Source: a bacterium (lineage in GTDB: Bacteria; Krumholzibacteriota; Krumholzibacteriia; JACNKJ01). Taken from it: 64,000 bases of DNA. Shown piece after piece: positions 11,773 through 35,838 of the stretch. The DNA is taken from contig VGXI01000001.1 of the NCBI GenBank assembly GCA_016873475.1, forward strand, positions 2,079-66,078. The letters run 5' to 3'. Both the position numbers and the translations under genes were made by a program. How positions within the stretch are numbered: the stretch's first letter is position 1; each line of letters begins with the position of its first letter. The notes beneath the pieces are model-generated. The model did not search any database, had not been told where the DNA came from, and saw only the letters and a program-made list of their open reading frames with translations.

Positions 11773-11817
11773 CAGATTTTTCCCTGACGACCTTAGGCTC
11801 TTCGTCTAGATTTTGTC

Positions 11818-11825: not shown

Positions 11826-11893
11826 AGCGGCAGCAAGCAGCACCGGCGGACGCCGGAGAGCTTCTCGACCGGACCAAACGACGGAGGCCAACG

Positions 11894-12500: not shown

Positions 12501-12656
12501 AGGCCGACGCGATCGCCAGTACTGGGCGCTTCAATCGGCAAGGGCAGGGGGCGGGCGCCGCGAGCTGCCCGCCCCTCATTTCGCCGGCGTTTCCCGCCTG
12601 GGCACTGCCACTGCTCTGTGCTAGGCTGCCCGCTTTCCACCGCGGAGGCGAGCCGC

Positions 12657-14063: not shown

Positions 14064-14143
14064 GGCACTTCCACTGCGCGCGCCGCCCGAAGTACCCGGC
14101 TCGAGGAGAGCGCCCGAATCCCGGCGGACCAACAAGCAGGCTC

Positions 14144-14254
14144 TGGGACGGCTGCACGGATGCGGGCGGGGCTGCCGCGGCAGGTGTCTACTTCGCCCGG
14201 GTGCGCTATACTGATGGGACGGTAGCCTCGCGGAAGTTCACCCTCCTGCGATAA
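14144..14254 (+). pseudogene. Orphan 3' remnant of a T9SS/FlgD-Ig-type C-terminal sorting domain (…[37 protein letters not shown])
   Basis: Only the last roughly 35 aa of the conserved C-terminal sorting domain remain, with no upstream body in frame. It lies between the RNase J-like gene and the next gene. Confidence 0.45.
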
Positions 14255-14261
14255 GGAGGCG

Positions 14262-18325: not shown

Positions 18326-18479
18326 GGCGGGCTCCTTCGTCGGTGGTCGGCAGACCCGACCAGTATAGCAGAAGGCGACCTGGGCTTGCGGGGCGAGCCT
18401 AGGCCCGGCGCATTGTCTTGCCAAGCCGAATCCATTGGGCTAAGCCTAGGCGCGTTGCCAACCTGCCCGAGGTGGCCCG

Positions 18480-21217: not shown

Positions 21218-21302
21218 CCTCGCCGTCTTCTCCGCGGCGCGGCAATGGTCTATAATTGACCGATTCCAACCCGGCTCGACGCCGGCCGCCCGCGGAGCGA
21301 CG

Positions 21303-22055
21303 ATGTCCCCTCGCCCCTGGCAGCGCTTTGTCCGCGCCCTCGCGCCGGCGCTCTGCGCGCTCGGGCTCAGTGCGCCGCACGCGGCGGCCGGCACGGCCCT
21401 GGCGATCAGTCCGCCGGGCGCGGTCGATACCCGCGGGCCCCGCTTCACGCTGCTCGCACCCGAGCCGGGGGCCATCCTCATCGGCGGCGAGAGCGTCACG
21501 CTGCGCTGGTCGCTCGAGGACCCCTATCTGCCGGCGGGGCAGGCCGGGCAGGCGCCGCTCGGCCTGAGCTTCCACGTGGACGGAGCGCTGGTGCACGCGG
21601 ACTCGCTGAGCCTCGCGGCGGGCATCGGTCAGCCGCCCAGCTTCGCCTACTTCTGGCTCGTCCCGTCGCTGCCCACGGAGAACTGCCGCTGGACGCTGAC
21701 TCTCGCCGACGCCTTCGGCAACCTGGGCACGATCGAGAGCGAGCCGCACCGCATCGCCACCGACGAGAGCCCCGCCGACGCGCTCGCGCCCGCGGCGCTG
21801 AGCCTCGCGCCCAATTGGCCGAACCCATTCAATCCCGCCACGCGGCTGCGTTTCGGCCTGCCCCGCGCCGGCAGCCCGCGCCTGACCATCCACGACGTGC
21901 AGGGCCGCGAGCTCGCGCGGCTCTGGGACGGCCCGCATCCAGCCGGCTGGCTCGAACTGGAATGGCGGCCGCAGGCCCTGGCCAGCGGCGTCTACTTCGC
22001 GCGTCTCGTCCTGGACGGCGAGCAGCTCACCCGCAAGCTGGTGCTCCTCAAATGA
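21303..22055 (+). CDS. Secreted hypothetical protein with T9SS-type C-terminal sorting domain
   Basis: Signal peptide. C-terminal NWPNPFNPATRLRFGLP...GVYFARLVLDGEQLTRKLVLLK. TATAAT-like element about 45 nt upstream. Confidence 0.6.
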   Translation: MSPRPWQRFVRALAPALCALGLSAPHAAAGTALAISPPGAVDTRGPRFTLLAPEPGAILIGGESVTLRWSLEDPYLPAGQAGQAPLGLSFHVDGALVHADSLSLAAGIGQPPSFAYFWLVPSLPTENCRWTLTLADAFGNLGTIESEPHRIATDESPADALAPAALSLAPNWPNPFNPATRLRFGLPRAGSPRLTIHDVQGRELARLWDGPHPAGWLELEWRPQALASGVYFARLVLDGEQLTRKLVLLK

Positions 22056-25000
22056 GCACCCATCGGCGCTCGCTGCGCATCCGGCTGGCGCTCCTCGCGC
22101 TCGGACTCGCGCCTGCGCTCGCGCGCGGCGCCGAGCCGCAGGTCGCGAACCTGAGCTTCGCCCAGCGGACGGACGGCAGCGGGCTCGTCGACATCGCCTT
22201 CGATCTCGCCGACGCCGATGGCGGCACCCTCTTCGTCAGTGTCCAGGCCAGCGAGGACGGCGGGCTCACCTGGCTGGCGCCCTGCTACAGCCTGAGCGGC
22301 GACGTGGGCGCCGGCGTGCCGGCGACGCCCGGCCGCCACGCCGTCTGGAACGCGGGCGCCGACCTGCCGGGGCGCGAGCTCGGCGACCTGCGCCTGCGCC
22401 TGCTCGCCAGCGACGAGGCCTACCCGCGCGACATGCTGCGCCTGCCCGCCGGCAGCTTCATGATGGGCGAGACGGGCGCGCGCCAGGTCACGCTCACGCG
22501 GGACTTCCTGCTCGACCGCCAAGAACTGAGCAACGCCGAGTTCCTCGGCCTCCTGCAGTGGGCGAAGAGCGTCGGCCTGCTGACGATGCACGGGAACCTG
22601 GTCGTGGCCCAGCCCAGCGGCTTGAACCTGCTCGACCTCGGCGCCTCCACCTCGGAGATCAGCTACAGCGGGCCCAGCGGGCAGTTCAGCCTGCGCCAGG
22701 CGCCAGCGGCGGCCGCCGCCTATCCCGGCGGCTACGACTCCGGACCGCACCCGCTCAAGAATCTGAGCTGGAAGGGCGCGGCGATCGTCTGCAACTGGCT
22801 GAGCCAGCGCGCGGGACTGACGCCCGCCTACTCGACGAGCAGCTGGCTCTGCGGCGGCGGCGATCCCTACGCGGCCGTCGGCTACCGCCTGCCCACAGAG
22901 GCCGAGTGGGAGTACGCGGCGCGGCTCGCGGACGGCCGCCTCTACCCCTGGGGTGGCCCGGAGGTCGACTGCGAGCGCTGCAACGGCGCGCTGGGCGCGC
23001 CCTGCCTGGGTTGGAGCGCCGCCTGCGGCGCCCACGCCGCCGGGCGCAGCCTTCTCGGCGGCGAGGACCTGGCCGGCAACCTCGGCGAGTATTGCAACGA
23101 CTGGTGGGGGTCCCTGGCCGCGGGCCAGTTCACGAACCCGAAGGGCCCGACGACCGGTATCACGCGCATCGTGCGGGGCGGAGATTTCCTCAGCGGCGCG
23201 GCGGCGCTCAAGACCACCGCCCGCGCCTCGCTGGCGCCGAACCAGGCCTCCTTCGCGACGGGCCTGCGCGTCGCGCGCAGCTGCGCGAACTCCTTCCCGG
23301 CTCCGCCCGCCGCGCCGACCCCGGCCGACGGCGCCGTGCTCATCGCGACGCAGGTGACGCTCGGCTGGACGGCGAGCGACCCCGACGGCGGGCCGCTGAG
23401 CTACGACCTCTACGTGAACGGTGCGCTGACCGCGGCCGGCCTCGCGGCCCCGAGCTACACGCTCGGCGGCCTCGCGCCCGACAGCGTGATTGCCTGGCAG
23501 GTGCTCGCGCGCGATCCGGGCGGACTCGCGCAGTGGGGCCCGCTCTGGCGCTTCGAGGCCTGGGCGCAGCCCACGGGCGAGGGCCTGCGTTTCGACTTCG
23601 ACCAGGCCTACTTCGCGAGCGAGGCGGGCGAGCTGATCGCCGATCACGCGCTGGTCTTCGCGGACGGGCGCTACCACTGCTTCCACATCTACCATCGCGC
23701 GGGCGGCGGGCCGACCCAGCTCGGGCACATCACGAGCAGCGACCTGCGTCACTGGACGCGCGAGGCCGACATCCTGCCCGTCGGCGAGGGCGAGCCCTGG
23801 GAGGCCTGGGGCATCTGGGCGCCGCAGGTGATCGCCAATCCGCTGCCGGGTCCCGCCTGGCTGATGCTCTACGCCGGCGTCAAGGGCGATGGCCGGCCCC
23901 AGCAGATCGGCCTCGCCTTCAGCGAGGACCTCTTCACCTGGTGGCGCGCAGACGCGGCGCACGAGCAGCTCAATCCCTTCTACCACCCGACGGCGGCCTG
24001 GGCGGCCTGGACGGACGACGAGGCCGCGCCCGACTGGGCCGCGCCCTGCCGCGATCCCTTCGTCTTCCACCACGAGGGCCGCTGGCGCCTGCTGGCGACC
24101 GGGAAGGCACCGGACCGGAGCGGGCTGATCCTGCTCGCCGAGGCGGCGCCGGAGAGCTTCGCCTTCCAGGGGCGCGACGCGGCGGCGCCGCTGCTGCTGC
24201 GCGCGGACATCCAGCAGCCCGAGTCGCCGCAGCTCGTGGCCGTCGACCACGCCGACGGCCAGCGGCGCTGGCACCTCTTCTACTCCGATGCGAGCGGCAC
24301 GCGGCACCAGATGGCGAGTGACCCCTTCGGCGGCCCGGGCGGCTGGTCGGGTGCCGAGGGCGCTGGCGACAACCTCGGCCTGCTCGGCTACAGCGCCGCC
24401 GAGCTCAACTGGCTCGAGGGGCGCTGGGTCTTCAGCCAGCATCACAAGGATGCGCCCGAGAACCGCTACCTGCTGCGCTTTGCGAGCCTGGACTTCGAGG
24501 CGAGCGGCGACGGCCGGCCCACCCTCGTCGAACCGGGCGGCGTGTCCGGGATCCTCGGCACCGACGGCGGCCGGCTCGAGGGCGCGCTCACCTGGGAGCT
24601 GATCGGCGCGCTGCAGGGGCACGCCTTCGAGCACCAGCCCACCTGGGGGGACAATCCGCTGTTCGATCCCGCGCGCGGCGTCGCGAGCGGGATGACGGGC
24701 AACAGCTACCTGGCCACCTACGAGCGGCATCCGCGGCCCGACACCGGCGAGCCCGGCACGCACTACGAGGACTTCAGCCGCGTCGGCTGGATCCGCAGCG
24801 CGCCCTTCCGGCTGCGCCACAACCGGCTGCGCCTGGCCGTCGGCGGCGGCCAGCAGCCGGAAGCCGAATTCGTGGCCCTCGTGCGCGAGGCGGACGGCGC
24901 CGTGCTCTTCCGCGCGACGGGCGCGGACAGCCACGTCCTCGCGCCACGGGTCTGGGATTGCGAGAGCCTGCGCGGGGAGTGGGTGCGCCTCGTCGTCGCC

Positions 25001-25180
25001 GACCTCGGCGCCGCGGATTGGGGAGCGATCGCGCTCGACGCGGTGCTTGCCTTCGAGGACCCGGACGGCAGCGCGCCGGGCGAGGCGTCCGATCCGAGTC
25101 CTGTGAGTCTCGACAGCCTGCTCGCCGCGGCGGGTTTCCCGCCGGCGCCGCGCCCGGCGCCGCCGGCGGAGCATCGCTGA
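22052..25180 (+). CDS. Large secreted multidomain protein: formylglycine-generating-enzyme (SUMF1/FGE-sulfatase)-like domain + fibronectin-III domain + GH32/43-like five-bladed beta-propeller + conserved 'WGDNPY' C-terminal module (paralog 1 of 3)
   Basis: Start MSTHRRSLRIRLALLALGLAPALA overlaps the upstream stop (ATGA). The FGE region (RLPTEAEWEYAAR...GNLGEYCNDWW...RIVRGG) and the C-terminal 550 aa are co-linear with the proteins at 27164..29017 and 33979..35838. No C-terminal sorting domain. Confidence 0.65.
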   Translation: MSTHRRSLRIRLALLALGLAPALARGAEPQVANLSFAQRTDGSGLVDIAFDLADADGGTLFVSVQASEDGGLTWLAPCYSLSGDVGAGVPATPGRHAVWNAGADLPGRELGDLRLRLLASDEAYPRDMLRLPAGSFMMGETGARQVTLTRDFLLDRQELSNAEFLGLLQWAKSVGLLTMHGNLVVAQPSGLNLLDLGASTSEISYSGPSGQFSLRQAPAAAAAYPGGYDSGPHPLKNLSWKGAAIVCNWLSQRAGLTPAYSTSSWLCGGGDPYAAVGYRLPTEAEWEYAARLADGRLYPWGGPEVDCERCNGALGAPCLGWSAACGAHAAGRSLLGGEDLAGNLGEYCNDWWGSLAAGQFTNPKGPTTGITRIVRGGDFLSGAAALKTTARASLAPNQASFATGLRVARSCANSFPAPPAAPTPADGAVLIATQVTLGWTASDPDGGPLSYDLYVNGALTAAGLAAPSYTLGGLAPDSVIAWQVLARDPGGLAQWGPLWRFEAWAQPTGEGLRFDFDQAYFASEAGELIADHALVFADGRYHCFHIYHRAGGGPTQLGHITSSDLRHWTREADILPVGEGEPWEAWGIWAPQVIANPLPGPAWLMLYAGVKGDGRPQQIGLAFSEDLFTWWRADAAHEQLNPFYHPTAAWAAWTDDEAAPDWAAPCRDPFVFHHEGRWRLLATGKAPDRSGLILLAEAAPESFAFQGRDAAAPLLLRADIQQPESPQLVAVDHADGQRRWHLFYSDASGTRHQMASDPFGGPGGWSGAEGAGDNLGLLGYSAAELNWLEGRWVFSQHHKDAPENRYLLRFASLDFEASGDGRPTLVEPGGVSGILGTDGGRLEGALTWELIGALQGHAFEHQPTWGDNPLFDPARGVASGMTGNSYLATYERHPRPDTGEPGTHYEDFSRVGWIRSAPFRLRHNRLRLAVGGGQQPEAEFVALVREADGAVLFRATGADSHVLAPRVWDCESLRGEWVRLVVADLGAADWGAIALDAVLAFEDPDGSAPGEASDPSPVSLDSLLAAAGFPPAPRPAPPAEHR

Positions 25181-25238
25181 GGTGAGCGCGCTGGCCCTCC
25201 ACCCCGCGCGCAAGCCGGTTCTCCTGAGGTGGCGCGTG

Positions 25239-25285
25239 CTCCCCTCCTCGCCGCGCCCGTTGTTTCGGGCGCGGGAGGAGGGGAG
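25239..25285. terminator. Strong GC hairpin (19-20 bp stem ctcccctcctcgccgcgccc / gggcgcgggaggaggggag, 8-nt loop) between convergent genes; putative bidirectional terminator (approximate coordinates)
   Basis: Near-perfect inverted repeat seen directly, located between the stop of the FGE-domain gene (25180) and the stop of the minus-strand DUF1670-like gene (25322). No T-tract, which is common in high-GC genomes. Confidence 0.45.
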
Positions 25286-25321
25286 AACGCGCGGTCACTT
25301 ACTCTTAGGCCATCTGACCTG

Positions 25322-26254
25322 TTAGAGATTTCTTTCCACGTCGCCGGCCCTTGCCGGCGTTCTTGTCTCCAGCCCCTGGCGCATCCGCTCCCCATCCTCT
25401 GGAGACAAAGCCACGTTGCCCTTTTTCAGAAGCGTCGCCAGCCAGGACCGGTGCCCGGCCGTCAGCAGCTCCGGATGATAGCAGTCCGCGATCACCAGGT
25501 ACTGGGCCACGGTCCGCTGCGCCTTGCCCGTCGCCTGGCAGAGCGTCGCCGCATCCAGGCCGCGGCGCAGCAGGACCTTGATCTGATCGTAGGCCTTCAG
25601 GTAGTTGTCCACCGCGGCCAGGCTGTGTCCCGTGGCACGTGCGATGTCCGGTGGACTCATCCCCTCTTCAAACCTCCTACAGATGATCCCCTTGTGCGTC
25701 GGCGAGCTGCCCATGTCCAGGACGTAGCCCTTCAGCGGCAGCGCCTCGCCCGTCTCCTGCTCGTAGGTGCGCACATACTCGTGGATCCTGCCCAGGGACC
25801 GGTTCATCAGCACCGACAGCTCCGCGCCCGTGAGCAAACCACCCTGCGCCGCTGCGCTCCGCACGAGCCGAACCAGCGTCTCGATATCGCGGCGGGCCTC
25901 CCGCCGGCGGTTGATGCGACCGTCACCCTGGCGCCCCGTCCGCATCCGCGCCTCGATCTCCGCCTTCGTCACCAGCGGCAGATGCACGATCTGCGTACCG
26001 TAAGCCTCGGCCCGCTTGCCATAGCCCACCTTCGCGCCCTCGCCCCGCTTCGTCGTCGCCCAGACGATCGTGCCCGGCTCGGCACGATCCTGCTCCGGAT
26101 AAAACTCCCGCTGCAGATCCACGATCGCTTCCGCGATCAGACGAATCACCCGATGGCTGCCCACCAGCTTGAAGTCGGTCTCCAGCAGGTGCGCGATCGC
26201 CGAGCCGAAATCACGGCGGCCCACCGTCGCGTAGCGATCCCGGGAATCACCCAT
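25322..26254 (-). CDS. DUF1670-like protein with C-terminal HTH-like region (downstream member of a tandem paralogous pair)
   Basis: Region GGLLTGAELSVLMNRSLGRIHEYVRTYEQETGEALPLKGYVLDMGSSPTHKGIICRRFEEGMSPPDIARATGHSLAAVDNYLKAYD is co-linear with the upstream paralog. Its start overlaps the upstream stop (ATGA). Local GC is about 66%, against about 74% in the flanks. Confidence 0.55.
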   Translation of the reverse strand: MGDSRDRYATVGRRDFGSAIAHLLETDFKLVGSHRVIRLIAEAIVDLQREFYPEQDRAEPGTIVWATTKRGEGAKVGYGKRAEAYGTQIVHLPLVTKAEIEARMRTGRQGDGRINRRREARRDIETLVRLVRSAAAQGGLLTGAELSVLMNRSLGRIHEYVRTYEQETGEALPLKGYVLDMGSSPTHKGIICRRFEEGMSPPDIARATGHSLAAVDNYLKAYDQIKVLLRRGLDAATLCQATGKAQRTVAQYLVIADCYHPELLTAGHRSWLATLLKKGNVALSPEDGERMRQGLETRTPARAGDVERNL

Positions 26255-27078
26255 CAGGAGCCCCCCTTTTCTTCCCCGTTCGCCGGCAGCGAGGTGCGCA
26301 CCTGCCGGGCAATCTCCGCCAAACGATCGCGGAAGGGCGACTCGGCATACTGCTCCCGTAGCCGCAGATACTCGCCCGCCAGCCGCTCGCTGATGCCCAC
26401 CACGTAGGCGATCTCACCCGCTTCACGTAGGCCCTTCTCCCACAGCACCACCACACGGCCAAAGGTCTCCACGTAGCGTTTGATCGCCCCCGCGCTGTGG
26501 CGCGTCTGGCGCATGATCGCAGAGTACGTCATCCGGCGCAGGTAGAACTCGACGATCTTGGCCTTGTGCGACTGCCCCCGTCCCATCTCCTGCACCGTGC
26601 CCCGGGTCGGCACCCAGTAGTCCGCTGCCCGCAGCGCCGCAATGTCCCGGCGGATCGTCCGCACACCGGTCTGGAGCAACCGCGAAAGGTCCTCCTGGGT
26701 CAGGACCCCGCCCTGGTCCACCGCTTCTTCACACAGACGCAGCAGCCGGACGCGGCGAACGCCCTGCAGGCCACAGCGAACCTGGATCTCCAGATCCTCC
26801 AGCCCCCCGTCCACCGTCACGACCACAGCGACCTTCTTCATCGCCGCCAACGGCTTGCCCGCCGGCTCGCGCCGGCTCACCGCCGTGATCCGCATCTGCC
26901 CTTCCCGCACGTCGGTTGCGCTGCAAGACGGCAAAAGCACCTGCTGCGCCGTGGCCAACAGGGCCCGCGATAGCGCAGGTGCCAATTCGAAATCCTGCTC
27001 GAGGGCGTAGAGAAACTGATGCTCGATCGTCTTGGCCGCCAGCCGGGGCCCCGCGCTTCCACCCATGTCCCTCCTCAC
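26254..27078 (-). CDS. DUF1670-like protein (upstream member of the tandem pair), predicted HTH
   Basis: GGVLTQEDLSRLLQTGVRTIRRDIAALRAADYWVPTRGTVQEMGRGQSHKAKIVEFYLRRMTYSAIMRQTRHSAGAIKRYVETF is paralogous to the downstream gene. Start region has GTG/ATG candidates with a GAGGAGGG RBS. Confidence 0.55.
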   Translation of the reverse strand: MRRDMGGSAGPRLAAKTIEHQFLYALEQDFELAPALSRALLATAQQVLLPSCSATDVREGQMRITAVSRREPAGKPLAAMKKVAVVVTVDGGLEDLEIQVRCGLQGVRRVRLLRLCEEAVDQGGVLTQEDLSRLLQTGVRTIRRDIAALRAADYWVPTRGTVQEMGRGQSHKAKIVEFYLRRMTYSAIMRQTRHSAGAIKRYVETFGRVVVLWEKGLREAGEIAYVVGISERLAGEYLRLREQYAESPFRDRLAEIARQVRTSLPANGEEKGGS

Positions 27079-27163
27079 TTCCGCCTGCTCAAGGCGGGGG
27101 AATGACCGGATGATTTCCGGTCACTCCCCGCCTTGGCAACGGAAAGTCAGAGGTCAGGTGGCC

Positions 27164-29017
27164 TTATTTCAGGAGCAGCAGCTTCTGCCGGCCCAGCTCG
27201 CGGCCGTCCAGGCGCAGGCGGGCGAAGTAGACACCGCTCGCCGCGCGCTGGCCCTGGGCGTCCCGGCCGTCCCAGAGGACGAAGCCCGGCCCGGCCGGCA
27301 GCTCCTCCGCGAGCAAGGTCTGCAGGACGCGGCCCTGGGCATCGAGGATGGTCAGCTCGGCGCGGCCCGCCGCCGCCAGCTCGTAGCGCAGGCGCGTGCT
27401 TGGATTGAAGGGATTGGGGTGCGGCGCGAAGAGGCGGCCGGCGCCGGCCGCCGGCGCGACGGGCGCGTCCGACCAGCCGAAGCCGGCTTCCAGCAGCACC
27501 TGCCCGAGGGTCGGCCCGTCGGTCATCGGCGCCGTGGGCGGCATCGGATCCTGGCCGACACGAACGTACTCCTCGATGCTGTCGACGGCGATGTGTCCCC
27601 AGGCCACGGTGCTCAGATCGGCGATGACGAGAAAGACCGTCTGCCCCGCGAGGCTGGCCAGGTCCCAGAGCCGCGGCGTGATCTGGTGGCTGTCGTTGCC
27701 CGTCGCCCAGAGCAGGATGCGCTGATCGCTCGCGCGCACCAGGGCGACGAAGGTGAGCCCCGGCTGGTTGCCGCCGCCGACGCGGAGGCTCAGGCGATCG
27801 CCCGTCACCGTGAAGTCGTCGCTGCGGATCAGGCCCGTCGGCACGTTGCCCTGGATGCGGCCCGGCGGGTAGATCTCCGGGTTCGGGAAGAACTCGTAGG
27901 TGGCGATGTAGCTGTTGCCCGCCATCCCGGTGGGCACGCCGCTGCGCTCGTAGGGGTTGTCGCCCCAGGTCGGCTGGTAGTTGAACGCGGTGCCGAAGAC
28001 GTTCGTCCAGTTCTCGGGCAACCCGTCGTTGAAGCTCACCGAGGGGTCGCCGCCTGGTCCGTCGAAAGCGATCTCGCCGAAGTGGTAGTAATAGCGCGTG
28101 CCGTCGCGCAGGCCGAGGCCGCGGTGCAGGCTCCACAGCTCGGGCTCGCCGGGGATGGTCGTGATCTCGCAGGCGTGCCCCTCGTCGATGTAGGTGCGGT
28201 TCTCCTTCGACCAGCCGCCGAGGAAGGTGGGGCTCGCGATGTGGCTGATCTGTTGCTGGCCCCCCTCGGTGAAGAACAGGTGGTAGTTGCCGCCCCGCTT
28301 CACGAGCTGCACGCTCTCGAGCACGTTCTGGCTGTCGTTGACGAAGAAGGCGCCGCGGTCCATCCAGGGGCCGAGGTTGAAGCTGAGGGCGTAGCTGATG
28401 GCGCCCAGGGTGTCCGGCGCCGCCGAGGCCGTATTCAGCAGGTACCAGCTGCTGCTGCCGTCCTCGTGGAAGATCTCGGGGTCGCGGCAGTTCGACCACT
28501 GCCCCGACGACCAGATCGCCCAGCTCCCCGGACGATAGATCGGGTTGTTCGGGTAGCGATACCAGTTGTAGAGGTTGTAGCTCGAGGCGAGGCCGGTCTG
28601 CTGGGTGACGGTGTAGTTGGCACCCGTGTAGTACATCAGCCAGTCGTTGCTGTTGGGATCATCGATGATCTTCGGCGCCCAGATGAACTCCGACTCCCAG
28701 GCCGGCGGATTCGGAATGTCGATCGAGAGGATGCTGTCCTGCCGCGCCCAGTGGCGCAGGTCGGGGCTGGTGATGTGGCCGAACCACTGCTCCTTGCGCA
28801 GGTAGTGGCCGCTAGGCGGCAGGCTCTGGATGTAGAAGACGTGGTAGAGCCCGTTGTGCTTGACCACCGCGTGGTCCTTGCACTGCAGGCCCATCGTCTC
28901 GAGGAAGTAGGGCTGCTCGAAGTCGGTGACGTGCAGCGCCCCTGCCGGCGCGGCCCTGAGCGTCAGAGCCGCAAGTCCCAGCAGAAGGGCCTGCGCGACC
29001 ATGGGGAGTCGTGGCAT
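27164..29017 (-). CDS. Secreted GH32/43-like five-bladed beta-propeller + 'WGDNPY' module protein with T9SS-type C-terminal sorting domain (paralog 2 of 3)
   Basis: Signal peptide MPRLPMVAQALLLGLAALTLRAAPAGA. Motifs YHVFYI, IWAPKII, NCRDPEIF, YHLFFTE, QPTWGDNPY, GNSYIATYE. C-terminal PNPFNPSTRLRYEL...GVYFARLRLDG...QKLLLLK. Confidence 0.7.
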   Translation of the reverse strand: MPRLPMVAQALLLGLAALTLRAAPAGALHVTDFEQPYFLETMGLQCKDHAVVKHNGLYHVFYIQSLPPSGHYLRKEQWFGHITSPDLRHWARQDSILSIDIPNPPAWESEFIWAPKIIDDPNSNDWLMYYTGANYTVTQQTGLASSYNLYNWYRYPNNPIYRPGSWAIWSSGQWSNCRDPEIFHEDGSSSWYLLNTASAAPDTLGAISYALSFNLGPWMDRGAFFVNDSQNVLESVQLVKRGGNYHLFFTEGGQQQISHIASPTFLGGWSKENRTYIDEGHACEITTIPGEPELWSLHRGLGLRDGTRYYYHFGEIAFDGPGGDPSVSFNDGLPENWTNVFGTAFNYQPTWGDNPYERSGVPTGMAGNSYIATYEFFPNPEIYPPGRIQGNVPTGLIRSDDFTVTGDRLSLRVGGGNQPGLTFVALVRASDQRILLWATGNDSHQITPRLWDLASLAGQTVFLVIADLSTVAWGHIAVDSIEEYVRVGQDPMPPTAPMTDGPTLGQVLLEAGFGWSDAPVAPAAGAGRLFAPHPNPFNPSTRLRYELAAAGRAELTILDAQGRVLQTLLAEELPAGPGFVLWDGRDAQGQRAASGVYFARLRLDGRELGRQKLLLLK

Positions 29018-29136
29018 TGCTCACCTCGCGAGAGGCCACAATTCTAGCAGATCCGCGCCGGACGCGGGGCCTTGAAATGGGCGGAGTTCGCGCTCCGGAA
29101 CGGTGGGCAATCCCGGGGTCGTCCGCGGAAGGGAGC

Positions 29137-30198
29137 TCAGCGCTGCGCTGCCTCGCCCTCCGCTCGCTCGCGCTCGCGGGCCTGCTGGGCGAGCACGGAG
29201 AACTCGTCGGCGCGCCGGCTGTCGCGGCGCTCCGCGAAGATCCGGCTGAGCAGCTCGTAGACGTGCGCGGTCTCGGCCTGCGCCGCCGGCAGGCGCTGCA
29301 GCTGCTGCTCCGCGGCCGTCAGCTCGCCCATGCCGACCAGCAACTCGGCCCGGCCGAGCGCCGCCTTCGCATAGAGCGGGTTGATCGCGAGCGCCTTGCC
29401 GAGCTGGAGGAGCGAGGCCTCGCGGTGCTCGGCCTCCTGGAGCAGTCGCGCCAGGTCGTAGCGCAGGTCCGGCCAATCCGGCTGCAGCGCGACCGCGCGC
29501 TCGAGCAGTGCCACCGACGCGGCGAGGTCGCCGCGCCGGTCCCGCTCCGCAGCCGCTTCGCGCAGCAGCTCGATGGAGGCCGGCCAGCGCGCCAGGCCCT
29601 GCTCGAGCAGACCGAGCGCCGCGCTGGCATCGCCCAGCTTGCGCTCCCAACGCGCCCGGAAGAGCCAGTAGCGATCCGGCTGCCGGCCGGCGAGCACCGC
29701 CCAGGCGTAGAGCCGGCGCCCAAGCTCACCCTCGCCGCGGAACGTGAAGAACTCGCCCATGGCGGCAAAGAGGCGGCGGAAGGCCGGGCAGAGCAGGGCG
29801 CGCCGGAGGACCGCCGGTTCTGTGGCGAGGGGCGCTACGGCGGCGAGGAGGGCTTCGAGCTCCGGGCCGGCATCCGCGAAGTCCGTGCGCAGCCGCTGCA
29901 CCAGCGCCTCGGCGCTTGGCGCCGCCTGGCTCGGGCGCAGGCCGCCCTGGGCCGTGAGCCAGCTCTCCCAGAGCTGCCGGTCCTCGAGCCCCGGCACGCG
30001 CACCGCGAGCGCCGCTCGCGCCTCGGCCGCGGCCGCGAGGGCCGCCGCAGCCGCCGCCGGGTCGCGCTCGGCGACGAGCTGCCCGCGCAGGAGCGCGTGC
30101 AGTCCCCATTCCAGCGTGAGGTCGGGGTAGGGCGGATGCTGCTCGCGACGCCAGCGGTAGTATGGCTCGCAGCGCTCGAGAAGGAGGATCCAGTCCAC
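29137..30198 (-). CDS. TPR-repeat protein (cytoplasmic)
   Basis: Repeated TPR-like helical hairpins (AALGLLEQGLARWP...LLERAVALQPDW...LGKALAINPLYAKAALGRAELLVGMG). Immediately downstream of glpX on the same strand. Confidence 0.6.
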   Translation of the reverse strand: MDWILLLERCEPYYRWRREQHPPYPDLTLEWGLHALLRGQLVAERDPAAAAAALAAAAEARAALAVRVPGLEDRQLWESWLTAQGGLRPSQAAPSAEALVQRLRTDFADAGPELEALLAAVAPLATEPAVLRRALLCPAFRRLFAAMGEFFTFRGEGELGRRLYAWAVLAGRQPDRYWLFRARWERKLGDASAALGLLEQGLARWPASIELLREAAAERDRRGDLAASVALLERAVALQPDWPDLRYDLARLLQEAEHREASLLQLGKALAINPLYAKAALGRAELLVGMGELTAAEQQLQRLPAAQAETAHVYELLSRIFAERRDSRRADEFSVLAQQARERERAEGEAAQR

Positions 30199-30205
30199 GG
30201 CAGCC

Positions 30206-31153
30206 TCAGCTTTCGAAGACGTGCTGCGCCTCGATGTAGCGGATGGTGCGCGACATGCTGCGCATCACGATGCTGTGCGTGTGGCAGCCGCCCCTGTGGA
30301 AGCGCACGCCGCGCAGCAGATCGCCGTCGGTGATGCCCGTGGCGGCGAACATGATGTTGTCGCCGACGGCGAGGTCGTTCAGCTGGAAGATGCGACCGGG
30401 ATCGGCGAGGCCCATGCCCACGGCGCGCTCGCGCTCGGCCTCGCTGCGGAAGGCGAGCCGGGCCTGCATGTCCCCGCCCAGGCAGCGCAGGGCCGCGGCC
30501 GCGAGCACGCCTTCGGGCGCGCCGCCGGTGCCGAGCAGGATGTCCACCGTCGCCTCGCTGACCGCCGTGGCGATGGCCGCCGAGACGTCGCCATCCGGAA
30601 TCAGGTGGATGCGGCAGCCGACCCTGCGCACGCGGGCGATGAGCTGCTCGTGCCGCTCGCGATCGAGGATCGCCACCGTGAGATCCTGCACCGGCTGCCC
30701 CTTGGCCTCGGCGACCGCGTGCAGATTCTCCTCCGGGCTGCGCCGGATGTCGATGGCGCCGGCCGCCGTCGGACCGACGGCGATCTTCTCCATGTAGGTG
30801 TCCGGGGCGTGCAGGAACTGCCCGCGCGGCGCGAGCGCCACCACGGAGAGCGCGTTGGGTCGGCCGTAGGCGACGCTGTTCGTGCACTCGAGCGGGTCGA
30901 GGGCGATGTCGACCGCCGGCTCCGCGCCCGTGCCGACGCGCTCGCCGATGAACAGCATCGGCGCCTCGTCGCGCTCTCCTTCGCCGATCACGACGACGCC
31001 GTCCATGGCGATGCGGTTGAAGCCCTCGCGCATGGCCGTGGTCGCCGCCTCGTCGGCGGCGTTGGGATCGCCGCGGCCGAGCAGGCGGGATGAGGCGATG
31101 GCCGCCGCCTCCGTGACGCGCACGAACTCCAGCGCGAGATTGCGATCCATCAC
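30206..31153 (-). CDS. glpX: Fructose-1,6-bisphosphatase class II (GlpX)
   Basis: Strong family signature (FVRVTEAAAIASSRLLGRGD...VVIGEGERDEAPMLFIGERVG...LDPLECTN...GGAPEGV). 315 aa. Confidence 0.9.
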   Translation of the reverse strand: MMDRNLALEFVRVTEAAAIASSRLLGRGDPNAADEAATTAMREGFNRIAMDGVVVIGEGERDEAPMLFIGERVGTGAEPAVDIALDPLECTNSVAYGRPNALSVVALAPRGQFLHAPDTYMEKIAVGPTAAGAIDIRRSPEENLHAVAEAKGQPVQDLTVAILDRERHEQLIARVRRVGCRIHLIPDGDVSAAIATAVSEATVDILLGTGGAPEGVLAAAALRCLGGDMQARLAFRSEAERERAVGMGLADPGRIFQLNDLAVGDNIMFAATGITDGDLLRGVRFHRGGCHTHSIVMRSMSRTIRYIEAQHVFES

Positions 31154-31167
31154 GGGCTCCTCCCCGT

Positions 31168-31641
31168 CTAGACGGTGTCTCCTCCCGGGAGAGGCGGCTG
31201 GCGCTGGCCGGCGCGCAGCTCATCGTTGAGGATCAACGCCACGTCGTAGGCATGGAGCACGAATCCGGCGAGGAGCAGGGGCAGCGCCTCGCCGCGGCTC
31301 ACGAGGAGGAGGACGAAGCCCCCGAGCAGGCTCCACCAGAACCAGTTGGCCTGTTCGAGGTAGAGGTAGCTGAAGGGCCCGAAGAAGAAGGCAAGCGTGG
31401 CGGCGACGAAGGGCCGCTTCGTCTCCCGGGTGCCGTGCAGGCGCAGCACGCGCGGCCAGGCGCTGGGCGCGCCACCCTCGAAGGCGGTCGCCTCGCCGGC
31501 GGGCGACGCCGGAGTCTCCGCGGACGTGCCGAGCGCGGTCGGCGACTCGCGTTCGGGCGGTAGCAGGCTCAGGTCGAGACCACAGGCGGGACAGAAACTG
31601 GCCCCTGTCGGTGTCGGCTGGGTGCAGCGAGGGCAGTTCAT
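31168..31641 (-). CDS. Zinc-ribbon domain membrane protein (MNCPRCTQPTPTGASFCPACG... with C-terminal TM helices)
   Basis: CxxC...CxxC zinc ribbon at the N-terminus and hydrophobic C-terminal half. Start refined to M30 of the track ORF with AAGGAGA RBS. Confidence 0.55.
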   Translation of the reverse strand: MNCPRCTQPTPTGASFCPACGLDLSLLPPERESPTALGTSAETPASPAGEATAFEGGAPSAWPRVLRLHGTRETKRPFVAATLAFFFGPFSYLYLEQANWFWWSLLGGFVLLLVSRGEALPLLLAGFVLHAYDVALILNDELRAGQRQPPLPGGDTV

Positions 31642-31784
31642 CAGGTCTCCTTTCCGCGATCCGGGGACCCGGGCGCCGGGCGTATTCTGCGGCGTCGGCA
31701 GTCTAGGAGCCCCCTGTCGCGCGCGCAAGCATCATTCGGGCCTGTCGCTTGTGGCGAAGCCCGGTCCCGACCTATTCTCACCGC

Positions 31785-32747
31785 ATGTGGCGACGCCCGC
31801 ATTTCCCCGGCCTCCTGCTCGCGGCCTGCCTCGGCTGCTCGGAGTCGAATCGCCAGCAGCCGGAAGCGCCGCGCGCGCAGGCCATCCGGGCCGCAGCGGC
31901 AGCGGTGGACGTCCATCGTCTCTACGCCCACGTCGCGGCCCTGAATGGCATCCACTCGCGCTGGATGCACTACGACCCCGGCACCGCCGCCACCATCAAC
32001 TGGCTGCTCGAGACGCTGGCGGCCCAGGGCACGCCGGCCAGCACCGACAGCTTCACATTCCGCCGCATCCGCGACATCCACACGGCCAACGTCGTGCTCC
32101 GCATCCCGGGCCAGGTCAGGCCCGGGGAGCACGTTCTCGTCGGCGCCCACTGGGACACGACGAGCTATCCCGAGAGCTGGCAGGACTCGACCGCCCGCGC
32201 GCCCGGCGCCGTGGACAACGCGAGCGGCGTCGCCGCCCTCCTCGAGCTCGCCCGCGTCCTCGCCGAGCGACCCCTCGAGCGCACGGTCGAAATCGTGTTC
32301 GTCGCCGCCGAGGAGGTCGGCATGTTCGGCAGCCGCCGTGTGCGGGATTACTGGCGACACGAGACCGGCCCCGACAGCCTCGTCTGCTACATCAACGTGG
32401 ATATGCTCGGCTACGACGCCGACCTGCCCGATGCGAACATCCTCTGCGATACGCTGAGTGCCGCCCTCGCGGCGGACTTGCTGCCCTGGGCCCAACTGAC
32501 CGGCGAGGGGTTGGCTCTCGATACCCTCTTGCGTTCGACCGGGAATCCGGGGGGCAGCAGCGACCATCTTCAGTTCTGGTACTACGGGCTGCCCGCGATC
32601 TGGGTACACGAAGGGCCGGGCGACGTTTCGCCCAACGCCAATACCACGGCGGACAGCCTGCCCGATCTGTGCCCCAGATTCCTCGCGGCCGGCACGCGGG
32701 CCCTCGTCGGGGCGGTCATGCATCTCGCGGAGCCGGTGCTACGCTGA
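31785..32747 (+). CDS. M28 family metallopeptidase (aminopeptidase) lipoprotein
   Basis: Lipoprotein signal MWRRPHFPGLLLAACLGC. M28 motifs (VLVGAHWDT...GAVDNASGVAALLELAR...FVAAEEVGMFGS...NVDMLG). Confidence 0.75.
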   Translation: MWRRPHFPGLLLAACLGCSESNRQQPEAPRAQAIRAAAAAVDVHRLYAHVAALNGIHSRWMHYDPGTAATINWLLETLAAQGTPASTDSFTFRRIRDIHTANVVLRIPGQVRPGEHVLVGAHWDTTSYPESWQDSTARAPGAVDNASGVAALLELARVLAERPLERTVEIVFVAAEEVGMFGSRRVRDYWRHETGPDSLVCYINVDMLGYDADLPDANILCDTLSAALAADLLPWAQLTGEGLALDTLLRSTGNPGGSSDHLQFWYYGLPAIWVHEGPGDVSPNANTTADSLPDLCPRFLAAGTRALVGAVMHLAEPVLR

Positions 32748-33833
32748 GACCGTCGGCCGCCGCTGTCCCGCGCCCAGCGCCGCCAGCTGGCTCTCGAGGG
32801 TCTCCCGGCGCAGGACGCCGAGGATGCGGCCGCCCGCCTGCACCGGCCAGGCCTCGCGTCCGCCGGCCCGCAGGCGGTGCAGCGCCTCGCCCACCGGCAG
32901 CGCGGCGGGCAGCGGCAGGAGTCCCTCCTCGACGAGCTGGCCGAGCGGCAGGGGCGCCGGCATCACGAGGAAGGCCGACAGCAAGGCGCGGCGCGAAAGG
33001 AGGCCGAAGCGGCCGCCCTCCAAGTCCACCACCGCCCAGGCGATTCCCTCGCGCGCGGCCAGCGCGGCCTGCAGATCGACCAGCCGCGTCTCGCGGTTCG
33101 CGAGCAGCCAGGACGCGGGATCGAGGCACTCGCCGACCGGGCGGTGGCTTAGGAACTCGTCCAGGCGCACGCCGCGCAGCTCGCGACCGCCGGCCACGAA
33201 GAGGAAGACGCCGATGAGGCCCAGGAGCAGGTACTGCAGTCCCAGCAGCGGCAGCAGGATCAGGAGGGCGGCGAGAATTCGACCCGCGCGCACGGCCCAC
33301 TCCGTGGCCCGCAGGTAGGGCAGCCGCAGCGCGAGCAGCGCGCGCAAGACGCGACCGCCGTCGAGCGGGAAGGCCGGGAGCAGATTGAAGAGCGCGAGAG
33401 CCAGATTCGCGTGGAGAAAACGGGCCAGCAGCCCTGCGCCGAGGAGCCGCTCGCTGAGAAGCGGTCCCTCGGCCAGGCCCAGCCCGAGGAGCGCCGGCGC
33501 GGCGAGCGCCAGGTTCACGGCTGGCCCGGCGATGGCGATGAGGATCTCCTGTCGCGGGCGGCGCGGCAGGCGGTCCATCAGCGCCATGCCGCCCAGGGGC
33601 ATCAGGGTGATCGAGCGGATCGCCACGCCGAAGCGCTGCGCGACCAGACTGTGTCCGAGTTCGTGCAGTAGAACCAAACTGAAGACGAGCAGGAGGCTGA
33701 GCAGGGTCAGCGCCGCCTCGCGCCAGCCGCCGCCGAGTCCATAGAGCAATCCAAGGAAAATCAAGAAGGGCGGAAAGCTCCCGTGGAGAACCACTTCGAT
33801 CCCGGCGATCCGCCCGATGCGCAACCGCGCCAT
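32739..33833 (-). CDS. Site-2 protease (M50 family) with C-terminal CBS-domain pair
   Basis: HELGH zinc motif inside a TM helix and a second LPAFPLDGGRV motif. Start refined to MARLRIGRIAG. 9-nt convergent overlap with the peptidase gene. Confidence 0.75.
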   Translation of the reverse strand: MARLRIGRIAGIEVVLHGSFPPFLIFLGLLYGLGGGWREAALTLLSLLLVFSLVLLHELGHSLVAQRFGVAIRSITLMPLGGMALMDRLPRRPRQEILIAIAGPAVNLALAAPALLGLGLAEGPLLSERLLGAGLLARFLHANLALALFNLLPAFPLDGGRVLRALLALRLPYLRATEWAVRAGRILAALLILLPLLGLQYLLLGLIGVFLFVAGGRELRGVRLDEFLSHRPVGECLDPASWLLANRETRLVDLQAALAAREGIAWAVVDLEGGRFGLLSRRALLSAFLVMPAPLPLGQLVEEGLLPLPAALPVGEALHRLRAGGREAWPVQAGGRILGVLRRETLESQLAALGAGQRRPTVSA

Positions 33834-33903
33834 GCCTGGCTCCTCTCGAGTCCGCTGGTCCCCGGAGGCGACGCCGCAGCGCAGCACCGGCACTCGCCCG
33901 GAT

Positions 33904-33933
33904 TTGACCTCGCGCGAATCCGTCTGTTATAAT
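33904..33933 (+). promoter_or_regulatory. Near-consensus sigma70 promoter: TTGACC - 18 nt - TATAAT (with TGT just upstream of the -10)
   Basis: gatTTGACCtcgcgcgaatccgtctgtTATAATctcggcc, about 45 nt upstream of the ATG at 33979. AT-rich island. Confidence 0.55.
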
Positions 33934-33978
33934 CTCGGCCAATTGACACGCGCTCACAACCCCACGCAGGACTGCGGC

Positions 33979-35838
33979 ATGACCTCTGGTTCGATCCGGC
34001 CGGCGCGACGCGCCGCCGCCATCGCAATCCTCTGTGTGCTGGCCGCGCTCCCCGCCCGGTTCGCCCGCGCCGAGCTCCGCTTCGACTTCGAGCAGCCCTA
34101 CTTCGTCGAGGAGCAGTCCGTCGCCTGCAAGGACCACGCCCTGCTCAAGGTCGACGGCGTTTACCACGTCTTCTACATCCACAGCTTCCCGCCGGTCCCG
34201 CCCGACTACCTGCGCAGCGAGCGCTGGCTCGGCCATCTGACGAGCACCGACCTGCGCCATTGGGCACGGCAGGACAGCATCCTGCCGGTGAGCGAGGTGC
34301 CCCCCTACGGCTGGGAGGGCAAGTTCATCTGGGCGCCGAAGGTGATCCAGGATGTCTCCGGCGCCTGGTTCCTCTTCTACACGGGAGTGAGCCAGACGGT
34401 CACCCAGCAGACGGGCCTCGCCTACAGCTGGGACCTCTACGATTGGGCGCGCTGGCCGCTGAATCCGATCTACCGTCCGGGCAGCTGGTCCAATTGGACG
34501 GCGGGCGCCTGGGCCAATTGCCGCGACCCCGAGATCTTCCGCGAGGCCGGCAGCCCGGACTACTACCTGCTCAACACCGCTAGCACGGCATCCGGACTGG
34601 GCGCGATCAGCTTCGCCCGCAGCCCGAACACGATCAACTGGGTGGACCTGCCGCCTCTCTTCGTGAATAGCAGCACGGCCGTGCTGGAAAGCCCGCAGCT
34701 CGTCAAGGACGGCGACCTGTACCACCTCTTCTTCACGGAGGAGTGGGTGCAGGGCACGAGCCACATGACCGCGCCCACGCTCACGGGCGCCTGGACCAAG
34801 GACAACCTGGAGATCATCGACCCCGGGAACGCCCCCGAGATCTCGAACCTCGGCGACGAGGTCGTCTTCAGCCGGCACAACGCCATCCTCTCGCCGGACG
34901 GCCCGATCTACTTCTACCGCTTCGACCACATCGCGCTGGACGGCCCCGGCGGCGCCGCGCAGATCACGCCGCTGCCTTCGGCGCTGGCGGACTGGACGAT
35001 CGTCTTCGGCTCCGCCTTCGACAACCAGCCGACCTGGGGCGACAATCCGTACCAGCGCGGCGACGGGCAGAGCCATCTGCAGGGCAACAGTTACATCGCG
35101 ACCTACGAGGACTTCCCCGAGCCCATCGAGGGGCAGGAGGGTGACGCGCAGGGCGTGCTGCCGGTCGGCCTCCTGCGCAGCGCACCGTTCACGATCAGCG
35201 AGAACCGGCTGCGCCTGCTCGTCGGCGGCGGCAACGACCCGAGCCGCCTCTTCGTCGGCCTCGTTCTCGTGGCCGGCGACATGCTCGTCCTGCGCGCCAC
35301 CGGCCAAGGAAGCCACGCACTTGCGCTGCAGCTCTGGGACACCAGCGTCCTCATCGGCCAGGAGGCCTATCTGGTCATCGCCGATCTTTCCTTCACCGCC
35401 GGTGGCTTCTTCAGCGTGGACGACATCGAGGACTACCACGAGACGGGCATCGATCCCTTCCCGCCGACGCAGCCGACGATCCCCGGGCCCACGCTCGAAG
35501 AGGTCCTCGACGCCGTCGGCTACGGGCAGACCGCGGTCGCGCCGGCGCCGGCCGGTCCTGCCGGGCGCTTGCTCGCGCCCTATCCGAATCCCTTCAATCC
35601 GAGCACGCGCCTGCGCTACGAGCTGGCGCGCGGGGCGCGGGTGGAGATCAGCATCCTCGATGCCGCCGGCCGCCAGTTGCGCCGCCTGCTCAGCGCCCCG
35701 CTCCCGGCCGGACCCGGCTTCGTCAGCTGGGATGGTCGCGACGAGGCAGGGCAGGGGCTGCCCAGCGGCGTCTACCTGGCGTGCCTGAGCATCGACGGCC
35801 GCGCCGCCGACACTCGCAAGCTCCACCTGATTCGCTAG
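33979..35838 (+). CDS. Secreted GH32/43-like five-bladed beta-propeller + 'WGDNPY' module protein with T9SS-type C-terminal sorting domain (paralog 3 of 3)
   Basis: Signal peptide MTSGSIRPARRAAAIAILCVLAALPARFARA. Same motif set as the gene at 27164..29017. C-terminal PYPNPFNPSTRLRYEL...GVYLACLSIDG...RKLHLIR. Start is M55 of the track ORF. Confidence 0.7.
   Translation: MTSGSIRPARRAAAIAILCVLAALPARFARAELRFDFEQPYFVEEQSVACKDHALLKVDGVYHVFYIHSFPPVPPDYLRSERWLGHLTSTDLRHWARQDSILPVSEVPPYGWEGKFIWAPKVIQDVSGAWFLFYTGVSQTVTQQTGLAYSWDLYDWARWPLNPIYRPGSWSNWTAGAWANCRDPEIFREAGSPDYYLLNTASTASGLGAISFARSPNTINWVDLPPLFVNSSTAVLESPQLVKDGDLYHLFFTEEWVQGTSHMTAPTLTGAWTKDNLEIIDPGNAPEISNLGDEVVFSRHNAILSPDGPIYFYRFDHIALDGPGGAAQITPLPSALADWTIVFGSAFDNQPTWGDNPYQRGDGQSHLQGNSYIATYEDFPEPIEGQEGDAQGVLPVGLLRSAPFTISENRLRLLVGGGNDPSRLFVGLVLVAGDMLVLRATGQGSHALALQLWDTSVLIGQEAYLVIADLSFTAGGFFSVDDIEDYHETGIDPFPPTQPTIPGPTLEEVLDAVGYGQTAVAPAPAGPAGRLLAPYPNPFNPSTRLRYELARGARVEISILDAAGRQLRRLLSAPLPAGPGFVSWDGRDEAGQGLPSGVYLACLSIDGRAADTRKLHLIR

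Follow-up and report, generated by a model that had tools for sequence, protein, structure and literature searches.

An uncultured bacterium of the Krumholzibacteriota carries three genes, here called A, B and C, for proteins in which a propeller is followed by a C-terminal module, and these raise the question of whether such proteins cleave sugars or only bind them. The genes lie in a window of 64,000 nt, which is the whole stretch of DNA analysed (contig VGXI01000001.1, assembly GCA_016873475.1). An earlier note on this DNA had proposed that the propeller lacks its catalytic Asp and may be non-catalytic. The analysis favours the opposite reading, with a probability of about 0.7: A, B and C would be secreted sugar-cleaving enzymes, each combining a carbohydrate-binding-type module, probably CAZy CBM38, with a five-bladed propeller whose catalytic triad is intact.

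The three open reading frames were confirmed at the coordinates collected in Table 1. Each protein carries a Sec-type signal peptide, as judged by inspection, and the motifs YHVFYI, IWAPK, CRDPEIF, YHLFFTE, QPTWGDNP, GNSY and VGGG were all found. By BLASTP, B and C share 54% identity over 607 aa (E = 0), and A shares 36% with B over 533 aa (E = 2e-68) and 37% with C over 539 aa (E = 9e-72). The proteins are collinear and the alignment covers the propeller and the C-terminal module, beyond the sorting domain; hence the paralogy claimed by the earlier note stands, and the outcome that it had named as fatal, similarity confined to the sorting domain, is not what the alignment gives. Family HMMs run against the six-frame translation detected exactly three propeller-plus-module units in the window. 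The description of the propeller as GH32/GH43-like was borne out by Pfam GH32N, which scores above its cut-off in A, B and C, and the fusion of A to FGE-sulfatase-like and FN3 domains by the matches listed in the table; the FN3 region gives in addition a weak match to Pfam Big_7.

Table 1. Positions in the window of genes A, B and C, their domains and neighbouring elements (Asp, Arg-Asp-Pro and Glu are the residues of the putative active site).
Feature	Position	Strand	Residues or supporting match
250-aa secreted protein with sorting domain as on B and C	21303..22055	+	stop overlaps A start (ATGA)
Gene A, 1042 aa: signal peptide, small N-terminal domain, FGE-sulfatase-like, FN3, propeller, CBM38-like module, Pro/Ala-rich tail	22052..25180	+	
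A FGE-sulfatase-like domain, aa 126-409	22427..23278	+	Pfam PF03781 96 bits, cut-off 23.3
A FN3 domain, about aa 418-491	23303..23524	+	phmmer: B. circulans chitinase A1 FN3 (1K85), E = 3.7e-7
A propeller, aa 511-817	23582..24502	+	Asp531, Arg667-Asp668-Pro669, Glu724; family HMM 247.5 bits; Pfam GH32N 31.6 bits
A CBM38-like jelly-roll module, aa 848-1005	24593..25066	+	family module HMM 182.7 bits; GH32-linked-module HMM 54.9 bits, E = 2e-16
Gene B, 617 aa: signal peptide, propeller, CBM38-like module, T9SS-type sorting domain	27164..29017	-	
B propeller, aa 27-320	28058..28939	-	Asp48 28874-28876, Asp179 28481-28483, Glu234 28316-28318
B CBM38-like jelly-roll module, aa 325-499	27521..28045	-	
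B C-terminal sorting domain, aa 532-617	27167..27424	-	Pfam FlgD_ig 36.5 bits
Sigma-70-like promoter match TTGACC-18-TATAAT, 46 nt upstream of C	33904..33933	+	11/12; consensus match only
Gene C, 619 aa, architecture as B	33979..35838	+	Asp52, Arg182-Asp183-Pro184, Glu237
C propeller, aa 29-322	34063..34944	+	Pfam GH32N 49.9, GH43 37.8, family HMM 432 bits
C CBM38-like module, aa 329-500	34963..35478	+	GH32-linked-module HMM 55.4 bits
C C-terminal sorting domain, aa 534-619	35578..35835	+	Pfam FlgD_ig 33.7 bits

The C-terminal tails of B and C resemble those of type A cargo of the type IX secretion system (T9SS) in being 85-aa Ig-like domains that start with PNPFNP. Both exceed the FlgD_ig cut-off of 27 bits, in agreement with the T9SS-type tails proposed previously, but remain below the cut-off of 23 for TIGR04183 Por_Secre_tail (16.3 and 14.7 bits, respectively), and the window ORFs scanned included no recognisable T9SS machinery gene. 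One homolog (P0057) reaches 23.3 bits with Por_Secre_tail against a cut-off of 27, another family member (P0064) is named "T9SS type A sorting domain-containing protein" by NCBI, and the sorting domain is present on at least six ORFs of the window. Through this domain B and C would cross the outer membrane by the type IX system, and their site of action would be the cell surface or the extracellular space. The family HMM scan of the window translation found no sorting domain in A. The 250-aa secreted protein encoded immediately upstream is a likely co-transcribed partner of A, and the pairing recurs upstream of an A ortholog at another locus (L044); A may be coupled in translation to this small protein, which has the domain that A lacks. 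Truncation of A by insertion of a DUF1670 pair was considered and rejected: there is no sorting-domain remnant, there are no terminal inverted repeats, and a 58% identical ortholog with the architecture of A (P0156) is likewise devoid of the domain. The FGE-sulfatase-fold and FN3 domains of A could be additional modules for binding or spacing.

The module that follows the propeller in A, B and C comprises roughly 150-160 aa and has a predicted CBM/MAM-like beta-jelly-roll fold. The earlier note could not place it in a known family, and this held in so far as the isolated module gave no Pfam match (E ≤ 10) and NCBIfam nothing on the module; it did not hold in that the module is far from private, its profile finding 3,993 50%-identity clusters at E ≤ 1e-3. 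Among these are authentic GH32 enzymes of Paenibacillus, Caldicellulosiruptor, Guptibacillus and Flavobacterium, with 3-6 tandem copies that score 70-90 bits each. Reciprocally, an HMM built from the GH32-linked copies alone scores 54.9-71.3 bits on A, B and C and matches nothing else in the window. These reciprocal profile matches establish homology between the module and the repeats flanking bacterial and fungal GH32 fructanases. Since the GH32-linked HMM finds A, B and C back, and the family extends to some 4,000 clusters, the module is largely assignable to a common domain, which the earlier note had listed as counting against its proposal. The repeats can be highly diverged: those of protein P0372 were not detected when it was compared with itself by BLASTP.

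CBM38 has been described as an inulin-binding, GH32-linked module and was defined on the CFTase of Paenibacillus macerans. The GH32-linked copies found here agree in number, size and positions with those of a Defluviitalea enzyme annotated as CBM38x3 + GH32 + CBM38 (PMC7355431). The module-bearing GH32 homologs are all generically named "GH32 C-terminal domain-containing protein", and include a three-module GH32 of 1338 aa in the CFTase-producing Paenibacillus sp. LX16 and a 1333-aa Paenibacillus GH32. The link of the 1338-aa protein to the LX16 CFTase is circumstantial, and the purified LX16 enzyme ran at 101 kDa, not at about 148 kDa. The module of A, B and C is probably CBM38, an assignment drawn from matching architectures and the literature rather than from a CBM38 HMM. 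It differs from the GH32-linked copies in that only its C-terminal two-thirds align strongly with them, whereas its N-terminal third bears the highly conserved QPTWGDNP...GNSYIATYE, common to copies in non-CAZyme proteins. This "QPTxGDNP" subtype is likewise combined with caspase, M19 peptidase, CsgG-like, GH116, PASTA and further domains; its ligand need not be a fructan, or even a glycan.

In domain order the module would take the place of the GH32 C-terminal beta-sandwich, and it may tether the enzyme to a polymeric glycan or extend the surface that binds it. Alternatively, and compatible with the enzymatic reading of the propeller, it could be a structural element indispensable to the catalytic unit, one that completes the active site or stabilises the propeller, as do the GH32 C-terminal domain and the sandwich of GH43 beta-xylosidases, instead of a substrate-targeting CBM. 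Every family member has strictly one module per propeller, and a short, conserved linker joins the two. The AlphaFold2 model of both domains of B (aa 25-520; pLDDT 95.1) has a pTM of 0.91, which implies a fixed interface, and the GH43 beta-xylosidase 8HCJ, with its C-terminal sandwich, matches the whole model as well as the module model. However, AF..QPTxGDNP...WIGT.E, the motif in which conservation of the module is highest, is kept just as well by copies that stand alone or are joined to unrelated domains, which points to an autonomous function and not to a propeller interface, and the homologous modules of GH32 enzymes are free tandem repeats. A purely structural role is unlikely, although it deserves the most weight among the alternatives.

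The family forms a distinct clade that is almost entirely restricted to Krumholzibacteriota. B-type and C-type orthologs constitute separate, old lineages, and B and C belong to a block of housekeeping genes with synteny in six genomes of the phylum. The B/C duplication is old, and the whole arrangement is old and stable, with the architecture of A kept in its 58% identical ortholog; the local paralog expansion suggested earlier is not upheld, and a recent adaptive burst is not the case. The conserved neighbourhoods of 42 loci contain housekeeping genes only, with no sugar transporter, kinase or SusC/D gene. The genes are core, vertically inherited and outside any polysaccharide-utilisation locus, which would also suit transglycosylases, or polymer-remodelling enzymes akin to GH68 levansucrase or CFTase, whose target would be a surface or matrix glycan of the cell itself, rather than nutrient-foraging hydrolases. 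GH68 and GH32 transferases use the same catalytic triad, and homologous modules occur in CFTase-type enzymes. Such a role is considered quite improbable.

Asp48, Arg178-Asp179-Pro180 and Glu234-Ser235 (B numbering) are invariant in 72 of 72 aligned family members, down to 36% identity, and the triad columns are equally invariant among A, B and C. The putative catalytic Asp sits 10 residues upstream of the YH motif, inside an invariant K-D-H motif; this is the spacing of the GH43 motif DPxxxxxxxxYY, and in two homologs K-D-H falls on positions 11-13 of the Pfam GH43 model. The best match of the family profile among PDB sequences is the invertase of Thermotoga maritima (E = 2e-15), in which the family RDP aligns with RDP (D138) and ES with EC (E190). 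In this ungapped comparison, which is one of sequence only, Asp48 is offset by a single residue from the GH32 nucleophile. Propeller proteins that have lost the catalytic Asp and act as lectins would account for the literal absence of the canonical GH32 WMNDPNG and GH43 DP motifs, and for local alignments to GH32 structures that begin just after the Asp. The invariance of the triad at such divergence is hard to explain without catalysis, and the position and spacing of K-D-H also speak against the loss; the lectin-like reading is very improbable. A, B and C look like active glycosidases rather than lectins, and the catalytic Asp deemed missing in the earlier note appears to be Asp48. All three residues would act in the axial funnel of the propeller: Asp48 as nucleophile or general base, Glu234 as general acid (or acid/base), and Asp179 by stabilising the transition state or modulating the pKa.

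Least credible of all are GH130-like glycoside phosphorylases: the beta-1,2-mannoside phosphorylases 7FIP and 9FJ8 nearly equal GH32 in the profile search of the PDB (E = 2e-13 to 4e-13) and NCBIfam and Pfam GH130 models match weakly, but several blades match and the similarity is partly one of out-of-register blade repeats (query 81-164 on chain 185-269), the proteins are secreted and carry a sorting domain, GH130 is not known to have an Asp base at the position of Asp48, and a phosphorylase-type active site with a family model above cut-off was not found.

Regarding the substrate, the best guess is a furanosidic polysaccharide. Because the best family matches are to GH32 and the module is of CBM38 type, a beta-fructan (levan or inulin) would be the leading single candidate, tentatively and at clearly less than even odds. 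In the invertase alignment, WMNDPNG, FYQ and FSGSA, which are GH32 -1 subsite residues, are replaced in the family by KDH, FYI and WAP, the last typical of GH43; therefore a fructoside substrate is far from certain. Fructan-active GH genes have been reported in a Krumholzibacteriota genome by dbCAN-based work (PMC10936416).

The family is real yet familiar in kind, and does not overturn current understanding. It would represent a conserved clade of glycosidases, specific to one phylum of uncultured bacteria and probably exposed at the surface, and its substrate would inform on the diet or surface remodelling of these organisms. Moreover, a jelly-roll domain of about 150 aa, covering the presumed CBM38 and the larger QPTxGDNP subtype, has no Pfam or NCBIfam model, and is consequently missed in genome annotation. 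It is possible, if rather doubtful, that A, B and C constitute a glycoside-hydrolase family that is new and distinct from both GH32 and GH43, belonging to the Krumholzibacteriota core and having a new substrate specificity, with the jelly roll obligatory in the catalytic unit and the QPTxGDNP subtype a large unmodelled ligand-binding family that recurs alongside peptidases, caspases and envelope proteins.

Comparison with solved GH32 and GH43 enzymes, to none of which identity exceeds the range of 12-19%, places the clade between both. A phmmer search of the PDB with B returned FlgD matches only, all on the tail, and a BFVD fold search generic propeller matches only. With GH32, represented by the T. 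maritima invertase (1UYP) and the Bacteroides thetaiotaomicron endo-levanase BT1760 (7ZNR), the family has in common the five-bladed propeller, the aligned RDP and EC-motif Glu, the first-blade motifs YHxFY and GHxxSxDLxHW and a beta-sandwich domain after the propeller, but identity is 12-17%, EC is changed to ES, and the Pfam model of the GH32 C-terminal beta-sandwich (Glyco_hydro_32C) gave no qualifying match in A, B or C. GH32N exceeds its cut-off in A, B, C and the five homologs tested, and the GH43 score is always lower; C and several homologs are above the GH43 cut-off, A is below it and B gives no match. With GH43 (BT_3675; 3QZ4, 3QED) and GH159 (7ZEI) the family shares the WAP motif, and several members are labelled "family 43 glycosylhydrolase" by NCBI; it departs from GH43 in these scores and in having RDP, a hallmark of GH32/GH68, in place of xDP. 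The clade could thus help to define the boundary between the two clans.

The genes A, B and C encode secreted proteins in which a propeller with an invariant Asp/Asp/Glu triad is fixed to a CBM-type jelly roll. The earlier note had described three paralogs of this architecture, and both the paralogy and the domain reading hold, the ORFs (Table), BLASTP and a three-way alignment being in agreement. B and C are 54% identical across 607 aa (E = 0), and A shares 36% identity with B across 533 aa (2e-68) and 37% with C across 539 aa (9e-72). The three-way alignment extends beyond the sorting domain alone, covering the propeller (~300 aa) and the C-terminal module (~160 aa). Family HMMs run against the six-frame translation of the window (G+C ~71%) detected exactly three propeller-plus-module units.

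Coordinates of the genes and features discussed
Feature	Positions	Strand	Remarks
Tail-domain candidate ORF (seventh)	11810-14251		weaker, partial match
Tail-domain ORF	14226-15734		HMM match
Tail-domain ORF	15830-18439		HMM match
Tail-domain ORF	21162-22052		HMM match; that of the 250-aa secreted protein
250-aa secreted tail-bearing protein	21303-22055	+	stop overlaps A start at 22052 (ATGA)
A	22052-25180	+	ORF, 1042 aa
N-terminal domain of A	22133-22411		aa 28-120
Hairpin	25232-25292		between convergent A and DUF1670
DUF1670/HTH gene	25322-26254	-	between A and B
DUF1670/HTH gene	26254-27078	-	between A and B, adjoins the preceding gene
B	27164-29017	-	ORF, 617 aa
Tail-domain ORF (B)	27167-29020		HMM match
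Tail-domain ORF (C)	33745-35835		HMM match
Sigma-70 match	33904-33933	+	46 nt upstream of C
C	33979-35838	+	ORF, 619 aa
Tail-domain ORF	61669-63999		HMM match

Glyco_hydro_32N exceeded its Pfam gathering cut-off of 22.1 bits in all three proteins (52.9, 49.9 and 31.6 bits), with GH43 ranking second and passing its cut-off, among the three, in C only, as well as in some homologs. A search of 5.8 billion proteins gave 92 relatives (88 at E <= 6e-46), labelled "hypothetical" or "family 43 glycosylhydrolase"; those with organism names are nearly all from Krumholzibacteriota or Latescibacteria MAGs, and the 42 loci in GTDB species genomes nearly all from Krumholzibacteriota or Krumholzibacteriia. 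In a 72-sequence alignment, with identity as low as 36%, Asp48 inside K-D-H, His59, the Ala-Pro within W-A-P, Arg178-Asp179-Pro180 and Glu234-Ser235 (B numbering) are invariant. The best PDB-sequence match of the family profile is T. maritima invertase (E = 2e-15), whose RDP (Asp138) and E-C (Glu190) pair with the family RDP and E-S. Asp48 lies 10 residues ahead of Y-H in YHVFYI, the same Asp-to-aromatic spacing as in the GH43 motif DP........YY, whereas in GH32 it is one residue longer, and because of this difference local alignments to GH32 begin just past the Asp. K-D-H falls at model positions 11-13 in the Pfam GH43 alignment of two homologs. Since Asp48, RDP and Glu234 are invariant, and RDP and Glu234 also align with the invertase, the former claim that the propeller lacks the catalytic Asp is wrong. 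Identity to solved GH32 and GH43 structures is 12-19%. The -1 subsite motifs of GH32 are NDPNG, FYQ and FSGSA; in the alignment with T. maritima invertase other residues occupy these positions in the A/B/C family, and its WAP motif is GH43-like. On these comparisons the propeller looks active and falls within the GH32/GH43 superfamily, slightly closer to GH32, and it is assigned to neither family.

The C-terminal module, previously held to be unplaceable, belongs to a large family of known type, a very common jelly-roll domain without a Pfam model. HMMER comparison of a 28-sequence profile with 1.84 billion representative proteins gave matches to 3,993 clusters at E <= 1e-3, GH32 enzymes included, and 2,027 at E <= 1e-10. 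The matches sort into two groups. The first comprises genuine GH32 enzymes, in which Pfam recognises GH32N, GH32C, Laminin_G_3 and often SLH (Caldicellulosiruptor, Guptibacillus, Halalkalibacter, Paenibacillus, Flavobacterium, Paraglaciecola, Aspergillus), each with 2-6 module copies matching profile positions ~65-160. The second carries the complete module, including QPTxGDNP...WIGT.E, single or in tandem, joined to caspase, M19 dipeptidase, CsgG/LpoB-like, DUF4412, GH116, PASTA, PKD, FGE-sulfatase, AA14 and other domains. Among the top 148 representatives of this search, 21 are A/B/C family members, 19 combine a more divergent propeller with the full module, in 57 the complete module stands without a propeller, and 51 show a shorter match type (detectable propeller in 24). 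QPTxGDNP is equally conserved in copies joined to unrelated domains, so it more likely marks a ligand site of the module or its fold core than an interface with the propeller.

Five larger proteins (P0149, P0151, P0174, P0179, P0221) matched the family propeller HMM at 60-143 bits, with a full module after it, and no Pfam domains were found in them; the propeller-plus-module unit reaches past detection by the GH32N and GH43 models. Two metagenomic proteins (P0164, P0173) have an N-terminal Phage_attach domain (head-tail attachment), then a divergent propeller and the module, and may be phage-borne depolymerase-like proteins of A/B/C design. Three tandem full-length QPTxGDNP modules occur in a sea-anemone assembly (Actinostola sp., P0095/P0246, KAK3723837/8), where they are either genuinely eukaryotic or the result of contamination.

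The C-terminal 85 aa of B and C form a domain opening with PNPFNP, over the cut-off for Pfam FlgD_ig and under it for TIGR04183; one A/B/C family member is named by NCBI a T9SS type A sorting-domain protein. The same HMM scan of the six-frame translation placed this tail on B, C and at least four further window ORFs, and none on A. The tail-domain ORFs include a Sortilin/BNR protein, a DUF5122 propeller protein and a HYDIN-like Ig protein, presumed T9SS cargo being plentiful in this region. A contains an FGE-sulfatase-fold domain (Pfam, 96 bits), an FN3 domain (match to 1K85, E = 3.7e-7) and a ~95-aa N-terminal domain with a single Asp-box-like SxDxGxTW (SEDGGLTW), for which no family match was obtained beyond weak BNR/sialidase-repeat similarity. 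That A is a truncated protein was rejected: a 58%-identical ortholog of 1034 aa has the same architecture, and no tail remnant lies downstream. The gene of the 250-aa tail-bearing protein, paired with A, recurs upstream of the A ortholog (locus L044), and this protein may serve the tail-less A as carrier or anchor.

Six genomes share a syntenic block that runs matrixin-like peptidase, C, M50, M28, Zn-ribbon protein, GlpX, TPR protein, B; in two of them GlpX was not detected, and the B orthologs of the six are 57-79% identical to B. This synteny and the separate grouping of B-type and C-type orthologs argue that the B/C duplication is old and stable and does not reflect recent local expansion. 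At the corresponding position the other genomes have neither A with its partner gene nor the DUF1670 pair, the latter being absent there from the six relatives compared. The DUF1670 pair, with GC3 of 0.79 and 0.84 (neighbours 0.87-0.97), is possibly a foreign insertion; terminal inverted repeats were looked for and none found. The hairpin (18-nt arms, 94% complementary, 25-nt loop, no T-run) looks like a bidirectional terminator. Upstream of C lies a near-consensus sigma-70 match, TTGACC-18-TATAAT with TG; over 15.5 kb there are four matches of this kind, where 0.4 would be expected. Conserved neighbours across the 42 loci are an OMP-like 212-aa protein, PyrE, TPR proteins, GlpX, RarA, succinate dehydrogenase and an asparaginase-type hydrolase. 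No conserved sugar transporters, kinases or SusC/D were found across these loci, and therefore gene context gives no substrate clue.

The repeats in the 1333-aa CFTase of Paenibacillus macerans served to define CBM38, which is described as an inulin-binding module accompanying GH32. Paenibacillus GH32s of 1333 and 1338 aa contain three module copies, two N-terminal and one C-terminal, the cluster of the latter including strain LX16, a CFTase producer. In a Defluviitalea enzyme, dbCAN annotation gives CBM38 x3 + GH32 + CBM38 (PMC7355431), in number, size and positions as in the GH32-associated copies compared (P0366, P0347, P0122). A reverse HMM whose only input was 57 modules taken from 21 GH32 enzymes recovered the modules of B (71.3 bits), C (55.4) and A (54.9), with one marginal 9.7-bit match inside the B propeller and no other ORF of the window. 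The GH32-linked homologs and their layout make it very likely that the A/B/C module is a divergent relative of CBM38.

We propose that glycoside hydrolysis or transfer would proceed by acid/base catalysis in the propeller funnel, and that the module would bind the polymer or extend the binding site. B and C would be exported through the T9SS, and A may act together with the tail-bearing protein encoded next to it. The substrate class is most likely a furanosidic polymer. Given the affinity to GH32 and a module of CBM38 type, fructan heads the individual candidates, as a tentative guess with the odds still against it; fructan-active genes reported from dbCAN in a Krumholzibacteriota MAG (PMC10936416) are compatible with it, and the non-GH32 subsite motifs and non-CAZyme module partners argue caution. 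The design of the enzyme is a familiar one, of which A, B and C represent an uncharacterised, phylum-restricted variant.
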